Part shown: positions 32,969 through 60,597 of the stretch, in pieces
How the letters are laid out: every line of letters starts with the position of its first letter
How positions within the stretch are numbered: position 1 is the first letter of the stretch
Assembly: GCF_041248615.1 (NCBI RefSeq)
Contig: NZ_CP158426.1
Reading direction: 5' to 3' (one strand)
Length of the DNA stretch: 64,000 nt
Source of the DNA: Escherichia coli
GTDB lineage: Bacteria; Pseudomonadota; Gammaproteobacteria; Enterobacterales; Enterobacteriaceae
Notes under the pieces: model-generated
What the model saw: only the letters and a program-made list of their open reading frames with translations
Told to the model about the DNA's origin: nothing
The model's database searches: none
Position numbers and translations under genes: made by a program

Positions 32969-33502
32969 ATGCGCCTGCTCCCTCTCGTTGCCGCAGCGAC
33001 AGCTGCATTTCTGGTCGTTGCCTGCAGTTCTCCTACGCCGCCCCGTGGCGTGACAGTAGTGAATAATTTCGATGCTAAACGCTATCTCGGTACCTGGTAT
33101 GAGATTGCCCGTTTTGATCACCGCTTTGAACGTGGACTGGAAAAAGTCACCGCAACATACAGCCTGCGGGATGACGGCGGCCTGAATGTCATTAATAAAG
33201 GCTATAACCCTGACAGAGAAATGTGGCAGCAGAGTGAAGGGAAAGCGTACTTTACCGGCGCACCAACTCGCGCTGCGCTGAAAGTGTCATTCTTTGGTCC
33301 TTTCTATGGCGGTTATAACGTTATTGCACTCGATCGGGAATACCGCCATGCGCTGGTTTGCGGCCCGGACCGCGACTACCTGTGGATACTCTCCCGCACG
33401 CCAACCATTTCTGACGAAGTGAAACAGGAGATGCTGGCAGTCGCGACCCGGGAAGGGTTTGATGTCAGTAAGTTTATTTGGGTACAGCAGCCCGGTAGTT
33501 AG
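32969..33502 (+). CDS. blc: Outer-membrane lipocalin lipoprotein Blc (177 aa)
   Basis: Translation with lipobox LVVAC and a lipocalin fold signature; matches Blc. Its stop codon overlaps the sugE stop codon on the opposite strand by 2 nt. Confidence 0.9.
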
Positions 33503-33816: not shown

Positions 33817-33832
33817 ATCAGGCTCCGGAGAA

Positions 33833-33882
33833 TTGGGGCCGTCCCCGGTGAAAAGAGGCGTTTGCAGGTCGTCCTGCAAAGC
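33833..33882 (-). promoter_or_regulatory. Guanidine-II (mini-ykkC)-like riboswitch in the sugE 5' leader
   Basis: The minus strand reads TTTGCAGG-ACGA-CCTGCAAA, a 14-nt linker, then GGGG-ACGG-CCCC: two GC-rich hairpins each capped by an ACGR tetraloop, ending ~17 nt upstream of the sugE ATG. Confidence 0.55.
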
Positions 33883-33946
33883 TGATGGTTGAACGGATAT
33901 TTTGCCAGGTGGCAGGGGAATTTCAACTATTACCTTTGTGACTATC

Positions 33947-33985
33947 GCAAAAAAACAAACGGCACGACATAACTGTCGTACCGTT
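33947..33985 (-). terminator. Rho-independent terminator downstream of ecnB
   Basis: The minus strand reads acggtacgacagttatgtcgtgccgt followed by TTGTTTTTTTGC. Confidence 0.6.
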
Positions 33986-48526: not shown

Positions 48527-48602
48527 GCCCGGATAGCTCAGTCGGTAGAGCAGGGGATTGAAAATCCCCGTGTCCTTGGTTCGATTCCGAGTCCGGGCAC
48601 CA
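48527..48602 (+). tRNA. pheU: tRNA-Phe (GAA anticodon)
   Basis: GCCCGGATAGCTCAGTCGGTAGAGCAGGGGATTGAAAATCCCCGTGTCCTTGGTTCGATTCCGAGTCCGGGCACCA, a 76-nt cloverleaf with encoded CCA. Confidence 0.95.

Positions 48603-59332: not shown

Positions 59333-60597
<1,265 letters not shown>

Follow-up and report, generated by a model that had tools for sequence, protein, structure and literature searches.

The sugE (gdx) leader of Escherichia coli: a guanidine-II (mini-ykkC) riboswitch and candidate pairings for its OFF state

The guanidine-II (mini-ykkC) riboswitch class is defined by two hairpins with ACGR tetraloops, two conserved closing G-C pairs and 16 conserved nucleotides, and the linker between the hairpins ranges from 7 to 40 nt (PMC5558903). 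In the accepted model of the class a guanidinium ion is bound in each ACGR loop, C-G pairs form between the two kissing loops, the Shine-Dalgarno (SD) sequence is freed and translation is switched on (PMC9300104, PMC9094411, PMC12186494, PMC5558903). The Pseudomonas aeruginosa member (PDB 5VJ9) shares with the E. coli element its class and the ligand site in the kissing loops, and is a translational ON switch before an SMR exporter, as the E. coli element would be. Sequestration of the P. aeruginosa SD has been proposed to involve a 'P0' helix made from sequence 5' of P1 and the linker. In contrast, there is no helix between the 5' flank and the SD in the folds we computed for E. coli. A RelE initiation assay has shown that ribosome loading on the P. 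aeruginosa member depends on ligand; we found this measurement in the literature for that member and none for E. coli. The guanidine-I (ykkC) and guanidine-III classes share the ligand and are associated with the same gene families (gdx and guanidine carboxylase) (PMC12186494), but their folds are unrelated to that of guanidine-II, guanidine-I being a large transcriptional aptamer and guanidine-III a pseudoknot.

The E. coli member has been studied directly, and a review names E. coli among the carriers of the class (PMC12186494). An RNA called 'E. coli P1_8bp' has been crystallised with guanidine (PDB 5NDI; UUUGCAGGACGACCUG(BrC)AAA) (PMC5486947). A 49-nt E. coli SugE aptamer, consisting of P1, the native 13-nt linker and P2 with its ACGG loop, has been examined by NMR and SAXS (PMC9300104), and smFRET and simulation have been applied to a 47-mer (PMC9094411). 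In the NMR study two ligand-induced G-C pairs were seen; P1 (ACGA) is the stronger binding site and an ACGG variant, as in P2, is weaker (PMC9300104). Additionally, guanidinium (Gdm+) improves Gdx-dependent Cs+ tolerance in E. coli, and the caesium-resistant E. coli ZX-1 has a 20-bp deletion (AGAATTGGGGCCGTCCCCGG) upstream of gdx together with constitutive gdx expression (PMC13064478, 2025). The ZX-1 phenotype was observed as raised gdx mRNA; the published support for regulation in E. coli cells is indirect and comprises RNA-seq with n = 1 and growth phenotypes (PMC13064478).

We have analysed the sugE (gdx) leader within a 64-kb stretch of E. coli DNA, referred to here as the window; positions are those of the window and the leader is read on the minus strand. 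The features are collected in Table 1. The element is the same as the E. coli sugE/gdx representative of guanidine-II (RF01068) and there are no differences between them: the hairpins, the 14-nt linker, the SD and gdx all match. The P1 sequence of PDB 5NDI is identical to window positions 33880-33861. The string deleted in ZX-1 occurs once in the window, at 33829-33848, where its loss removes P2, and it is flanked by two CCGG repeats. As the published work concerns precisely this sequence, the element is known already, to the nucleotide.

Table 1. Features of the sugE (gdx) leader and its surroundings, in window coordinates
Feature	Position	Strand	Details and basis
sugE/gdx CDS, 105 aa	33499..33816	minus	Guanidinium/H+ antiporter; ATG 33816-33814, stop 33501-33499; RefSeq CDS in identical genomes
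Guanidine-II (mini-ykkC) aptamer, Rfam RF01068	33834..33880	minus	cmscan
P1 hairpin, UUUGCAGG-ACGA-CCUGCAAA	33861..33880	minus	8 bp; read from sequence
P1 parts	UUUGCAGG 33880-33873; ACGA loop 33872-33869; CCUGCAAA 33868-33861	minus	
Linker, CGCCUCUUUUCACC	33847..33860	minus	14 nt; read from sequence
CUCU within the linker	33857-33854	minus	Putative anti-SD of the published model
P2 hairpin, GGGG-ACGG-CCCC	33835..33846	minus	4 bp; read from sequence; aligned to Rfam model
P2 parts	GGGG 33846-33843; ACGG loop 33842-33839; CCCC 33838-33835	minus	
P2-to-SD spacer, AAUUCUCC		minus	Followed by GGAG, CCUGAU and AUG
Shine-Dalgarno, GGAG	33823..33826	minus	6 nt ahead of ATG; read from sequence
Predicted alternative helix, CCGGGGA:UCUCCGG	33825..33848 (33848-33842 with 33831-33825)	minus	Candidate OFF-state element; prediction only
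Promoter-like site, TTGAAA, 16 nt, TG-CAAAAT	33899..33926	minus	Consensus match alone
Terminator-like hairpin and T-run, 3' of ecnB	33958..33985	minus	12-bp stem, then TGTTTTTTTG

The sequence-only reading from which this work started had described two GC-rich, ACGR-capped hairpins on the minus strand before sugE, followed by a GGAG Shine-Dalgarno and an ATG. The hairpins are present at 33880-33835, and the SD and start codon lie downstream of them as described; GGAG is also the SD assigned to sugE/gdx in the legend of Fig. 1 of PMC13064478. The geometry given in that reading needs some correction. Its 14-nt linker stands, but the 5-bp stem that it gave P1 does not: the linker figure fits only with a stem of 8 bp, so P1 has 8 bp. 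Similarly, the distance from P2 to the ATG had been put at ~17 nt and is 18 nt, with 8 nt between the end of P2 and GGAG. P1 is formed in every computed fold of the leader, and a predicted fold extends it by a further 2 bp across a bulged C. The promoter-like site would give a leader of ~75-80 nt. It is weak evidence because one such site was found in comparison with 0.7 expected in shuffles. Further upstream, the terminator-like hairpin 3' of ecnB is predicted to delimit the sugE transcription unit on its upstream side.

A covariance-model scan of the minus strand for mini-ykkC had been proposed as a check on the sequence-only reading, and the scan returned a full-length match far above the curated threshold. 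The RF01068 score is 50.4 bits (gathering score, 32) with model positions 1-48 of 48 aligned, and E = 5.2e-07 for the whole 64-kb window searched with all 4227 families. Two sub-threshold Rfam matches in the region, RT-17 and PK-IAV (E 0.9 and 8.7), were dismissed as chance. Neither guanidine-I (ykkC) nor guanidine-III was found at the gathering threshold in the 64-kb window or in 79 Gdx loci. The pattern GGACGRCC-N7-37-GGACGRCC has a single occurrence in the 64 kb, and 100 dinucleotide-preserving shuffles yielded none. As in the class definition, both ACGR loops are closed by two G-C pairs (GG-ACGA-CC in P1 and GG-ACGG-CC in P2). The 14-nt linker (33860-33847) is within the class range of 7-40 nt, the SD is close downstream and the next gene encodes an SMR Gdx exporter.

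The product of sugE scores 193.5 bits against the SugE equivalog model NCBIfam NF008512 (cut-off, 126) over residues 1-104 of 104, which bears out the claim that the downstream gene is the SMR-family guanidinium exporter sugE (gdx). The Qac and EmrE models scored far under their cut-offs on this protein, and its nearest PDB chains are Gdx-type SMR proteins (E 1.5e-32). A longer TTG-initiated ORF in the mechanical ORF listing differs from the annotated 105-aa sugE/gdx gene. The gene order on the E. coli chromosome is frdD-ampC-blc-sugE-ecnB-ecnA-efp-epmB; sugE (minus) and blc (plus) are convergent genes that share 4 nt at the stop codons (33499-33502). It had also been claimed that ORF-based annotation would miss the element. 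This is the case in all four RefSeq records examined (PGAP), where the sugE leader is blank and no riboswitch feature is annotated. PGAP names the product 'quaternary ammonium compound efflux SMR transporter SugE', while the literature describes a guanidinium exporter (PMC13064478, PMC12186494). Other parts of the window contain a full-length match (150 bits) to the Hfq-binding sRNA isrC at 59408-59530 (plus), three identical tandem tRNA genes at 18470-18886 (minus) and a single further tRNA at 48527-48599 (plus).

The leader is nearly universal in E. coli. A 211-nt region was found in 5424 of 5426 complete genomes and is 100% identical in many E. coli chromosomes; the 82-nt leader alone was found in 5412 of the 5426, in every case with at least 95% identity. 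The leader allele of the window is the K-12 allele (100% match to a K-12 record), and ~2260 of the 5412 genomes depart from it at 1-4 positions. In the other strains examined, one or two bases of the linker or spacer are changed. One such change, C33857G (CGCCUCUU to CGCGUCUU), is present in CFT073 and in one O157 strain (L082, L083) and affects the first base of the putative anti-SD CUCU. A second, C33830U in CFT073, changes a G-C pair to G-U in the predicted alternative helix. E. coli strain 167, isolated from urine (NZ_CM132950.1, L084:2481-2565), has a natural 29-nt deletion corresponding to window positions 33859-33831. The deletion takes out the linker and the whole of P2 and fuses P1 to CUCCGGAG and the SD; a junction-specific search found it in 1 of 5426 genomes. 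It is akin to the 20-bp deletion selected in the laboratory in ZX-1. Three plasmid copies of the leader were counted in E. coli. Additionally, the Providencia vermicola plasmid p8538-NDM-1 carries a sugE of Citrobacter type whose guanidine-II aptamer is intact (47.2 bits; L007:538-582), and riboswitch-controlled gdx genes on plasmids have already been reported in a review (PMC12186494).

For comparison across genera we chose 80 loci of Gdx relatives, one genome per species, by protein similarity alone and scanned all of them with Rfam. Guanidine-II was matched in all 20 Enterobacterales Gdx loci with enough upstream sequence (38-49 bits) and upstream of 44 of the 79 Gdx relatives overall. The distance from the end of the motif to the start codon is 12-28 nt in most loci, including those of Enterobacterales, 45 nt in L023 and ~44-66 nt in several Mesorhizobium loci. 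In the remaining 35 of 79 there was no guanidine-class Rfam match at the gathering threshold within 600 nt upstream. The proteins of these motif-negative loci (L024, L026, L028, L030-L035 and others, for example from some Bradyrhizobium, Massilia and Bordetella) are 60-70% identical, and close relatives in the same genera do carry a guanidine-class match.

An alignment anchored on both hairpins (45 sequences; 44 fetched loci and the window) was used to measure covariation. The sequences had been retained for matching the same model, so the set is biased towards the Rfam structure; in this set 91.8% of stem cells hold standard pairs (67.8% in shuffles) and there are 143 double-sided stem changes (49 in shuffles). 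The stem covariation score is 0.645, compared with 0.18 for shuffled sequences and 0.06-0.25 for slid registers. Compensatory changes were seen in seven of eight P1 pairs and three of five P2 pairs. The P2 stem is near-invariant across Enterobacterales and covaries in remoter loci. Most Enterobacteriaceae loci retain a CGYNUCU motif where the linker starts, and the remaining linker sequence drifts. UCC serves as codon 2 in 22 of the 45 Gdx loci with the riboswitch (21 of the 44 fetched, plus the window) and in 2 of the 35 that lack it; with Enterobacterales and Mesorhizobium making up most of the set, this association is confounded by lineage. Compared by eye, position four of the P2 loop (R) and the nucleotide directly following GGAG are G:C in 11 cases, G:U in one, A:U in four and A:C in two. 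This apparent covariation is suggestive but was given no weight, the count being small, phylogenetically clustered and dependent on the register chosen.

Taken together, the RF01068 match, the SugE/Gdx gene, the covarying orthologous loci and the literature on this sequence all back the guanidine-II assignment made from the sequence, and there is no evidence against the identity of the element. The sugE/gdx leader element is almost certainly a guanidine-II (mini-ykkC) riboswitch, and we infer that in E. coli it works as a translational ON switch. In the proposed mechanism, P1 and P2 would form in the leader, each with an ACGR tetraloop closed by two G-C pairs, and each loop would bind one guanidinium ion. 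Binding would bring about kissing of the loops through C-G pairs, and the P1-P2 complex would keep the GGAG and ATG free through the shape that it imposes on the leader. Ribosomes could then initiate and the guanidinium exporter Gdx would be made. When guanidinium is absent, an alternative pairing would occlude the ribosome site. The literature establishes for this sequence that P1 binds guanidine and that loop-loop contacts within the aptamer depend on ligand; translational control in E. coli and the identity of the occluding pairing are what we infer.

Pairings that could hide the ribosome site were modelled with constrained ensembles at four transcript lengths, and 45 loci were folded free, with P1 and P2 locked, and with the linker also kept unpaired. 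The alternative helix CCGGGGA:UCUCCGG is the minimum free energy (MFE) fold of the 75-nt leader, and its constrained ensemble lies 1-2.5 kcal/mol from the free ensemble. It is predicted to exclude P2 and to cover the first two G of the SD. There is a further complementarity between GGGAC (33845-33841), which comprises three G of the P2 5' arm and the first two loop bases, and the G-UCCU of AUG-UCC-U, which lies within window positions 33816-33808. The candidate OFF structures are 1.5-4 kcal/mol apart in the constrained ensembles. Predicted SD accessibility in E. coli is ~0.2-0.4 whether P1 and P2 are locked or not, so that no switch emerges from the nearest-neighbour model. Nor did modelling the ZX-1 deletion raise predicted SD accessibility (0.26 vs 0.23). 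This lack of a modelled switch weakens the mechanistic detail, as do the weaker-binding ACGG loop in P2, the indirect nature of the cell data and the bias of the covariation set.

Two readings stand outside translational control by an aptamer. The folding energy of the leader is unexceptional overall (z = -1.4), as it would be if two GC-rich hairpins had come together by chance and regulated nothing. For the same reason the signal is a specific motif and not general stability, and a chance pair is at odds with a covariance-model E of 5e-07, a motif seen in 0 of 100 shuffles, conservation across genera with covariation, and ligand-bound structures published for the identical sequence; its probability is negligible and it is ruled out. 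The hairpins might instead, or in addition, act on transcription or mRNA stability, either with P1 and CGCCUCUUUU as a weak attenuator or through exposure of untranslated mRNA to Rho or RNase E. P1 and the U-rich tail CGCCUCUUUU (33851-33880, minus) were flagged as terminator-like by a consensus scan, but the scan found two sites where 1.2 were expected, and the U-run begins 6 nt past the P1 stem and is interrupted, which is not the form of a canonical terminator. Because the U-run is displaced from the stem, this is probably no real terminator, and a role for it as a transcription attenuator is unlikely. More generally, ZX-1 was seen as raised gdx mRNA (PMC13064478) and protection from RNase E is documented for guanidine-III (PMC9094411, PMC12186494). 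However, better translation would be expected to raise mRNA secondarily, and the guanidine-II class is described in the literature as exclusively translational. We consider an effect on transcription or stability improbable.

If control is translational, the pairing that hides the SD can be drawn in two ways. The published model has P1 and P2 permanently folded; CUCU in the linker (33857-33854) pairs with GGAG to close a loop around P2, and ligand-driven kissing of the loops separates linker and SD (PMC9300104, PMC9094411; the anti-SD is called 'putative' there). Consistent with this, CUCU:GGAG is the MFE pairing in the 82-nt transcript and CGYNUCU is kept at the start of the linker in most Enterobacteriaceae loci. 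That MFE is obtained only with P1 and P2 enforced, however, and <1% of the SD pairing probability goes to the linker in the free ensemble. In Citrobacter-type leaders the linker pairing GCUUC:GGAGC reaches -6.5 kcal/mol, but the E. coli helix has only 4 bp and is worth -3.5 kcal/mol as a duplex. With 20 nt of the ORF included, the constrained ensemble is ~3.9 kcal/mol worse than the free one. Moreover, CFT073 and an O157 strain have G in place of the first C of CUCU, and forcing the linker to be unpaired gave no gain in predicted accessibility of the ribosome-binding site (RBS) over 45 loci (p = 0.43). Alternatively, the strands of P2 could open when ligand is absent and pair with the ribosome site, through CCGGGGA:UCUCCGG or through GGGAC:G-UCCU (AUG-UCC-U) plus GGC(C)CC:GG(A)GCC. 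P2 and occlusion of the RBS would then be mutually exclusive and P2 stabilised by ligand would free the RBS. The folds argue for this at more than one length: the helix CCGGGGA:UCUCCGG is the MFE of the 75-nt transcript, as noted above, and the second set of pairings is the MFE of 85-112-nt transcripts. In ~12 of 21 enterobacterial leaders the MFE has this nested form too, the SD pairing mainly with the P2 3' arm, and in Bradyrhizobium-type loci the P2 loop and 3' arm pair with the SD (ACGACCCUG:GAGGGUCGUC) at -14 kcal/mol. Locking P1 and P2 raised predicted accessibility from the SD to the AUG from 0.40 to 0.46 over 45 loci (Wilcoxon p = 0.0009, for sequences that are not independent), but in the E. 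coli sequence locking P2 left it unchanged. By NMR, P2 is folded without ligand, in a construct without the SD region (PMC9300104), and phylogeny confounds the link between codon 2 and the riboswitch. The complementarity itself may be incidental because the G-rich stem, the SD and the Met-Ser-Trp codons are conserved for other reasons. The ZX-1 deletion takes exactly the P2 strands, including the 5' arm of the alternative helix, and fits the opening of P2 somewhat better than pairing with the linker because CUCU and GGAG stay intact; it is compatible with the linker model too and does not exclude it. We give the two roughly equal weight: pairing with the linker is quite possible though short of probable, and competition for the P2 strands has a comparable, less than even, chance. 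A more specific form for E. coli, in which the OFF state, in place of the textbook linker:SD pairing, is a strand exchange that pairs the P2 strands, including the ligand-binding GGAC, with the SD and the G-UCC of the start and second codons, and in which folding of P2 is the regulated step, is put forward tentatively and may well be wrong.

In summary, the element is a textbook riboswitch that is already known, and this E. coli copy is the subject of crystal, NMR, SAXS and smFRET studies. Its value as a discovery is small. The practical value is in annotation, where the RefSeq leader is blank and the gene is still named as a quaternary-ammonium efflux pump, and a scan able to pick the element out of raw sequence can thus be taken to work properly. 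How the ribosome site of E. coli is hidden when ligand is absent is a question of mechanism, modest in scope and of concern to specialists on riboswitches. If strand exchange were true, losing P2 by deletion, whether selected as in ZX-1 or natural as in the urinary strain 167, would create a constitutive-ON allele.
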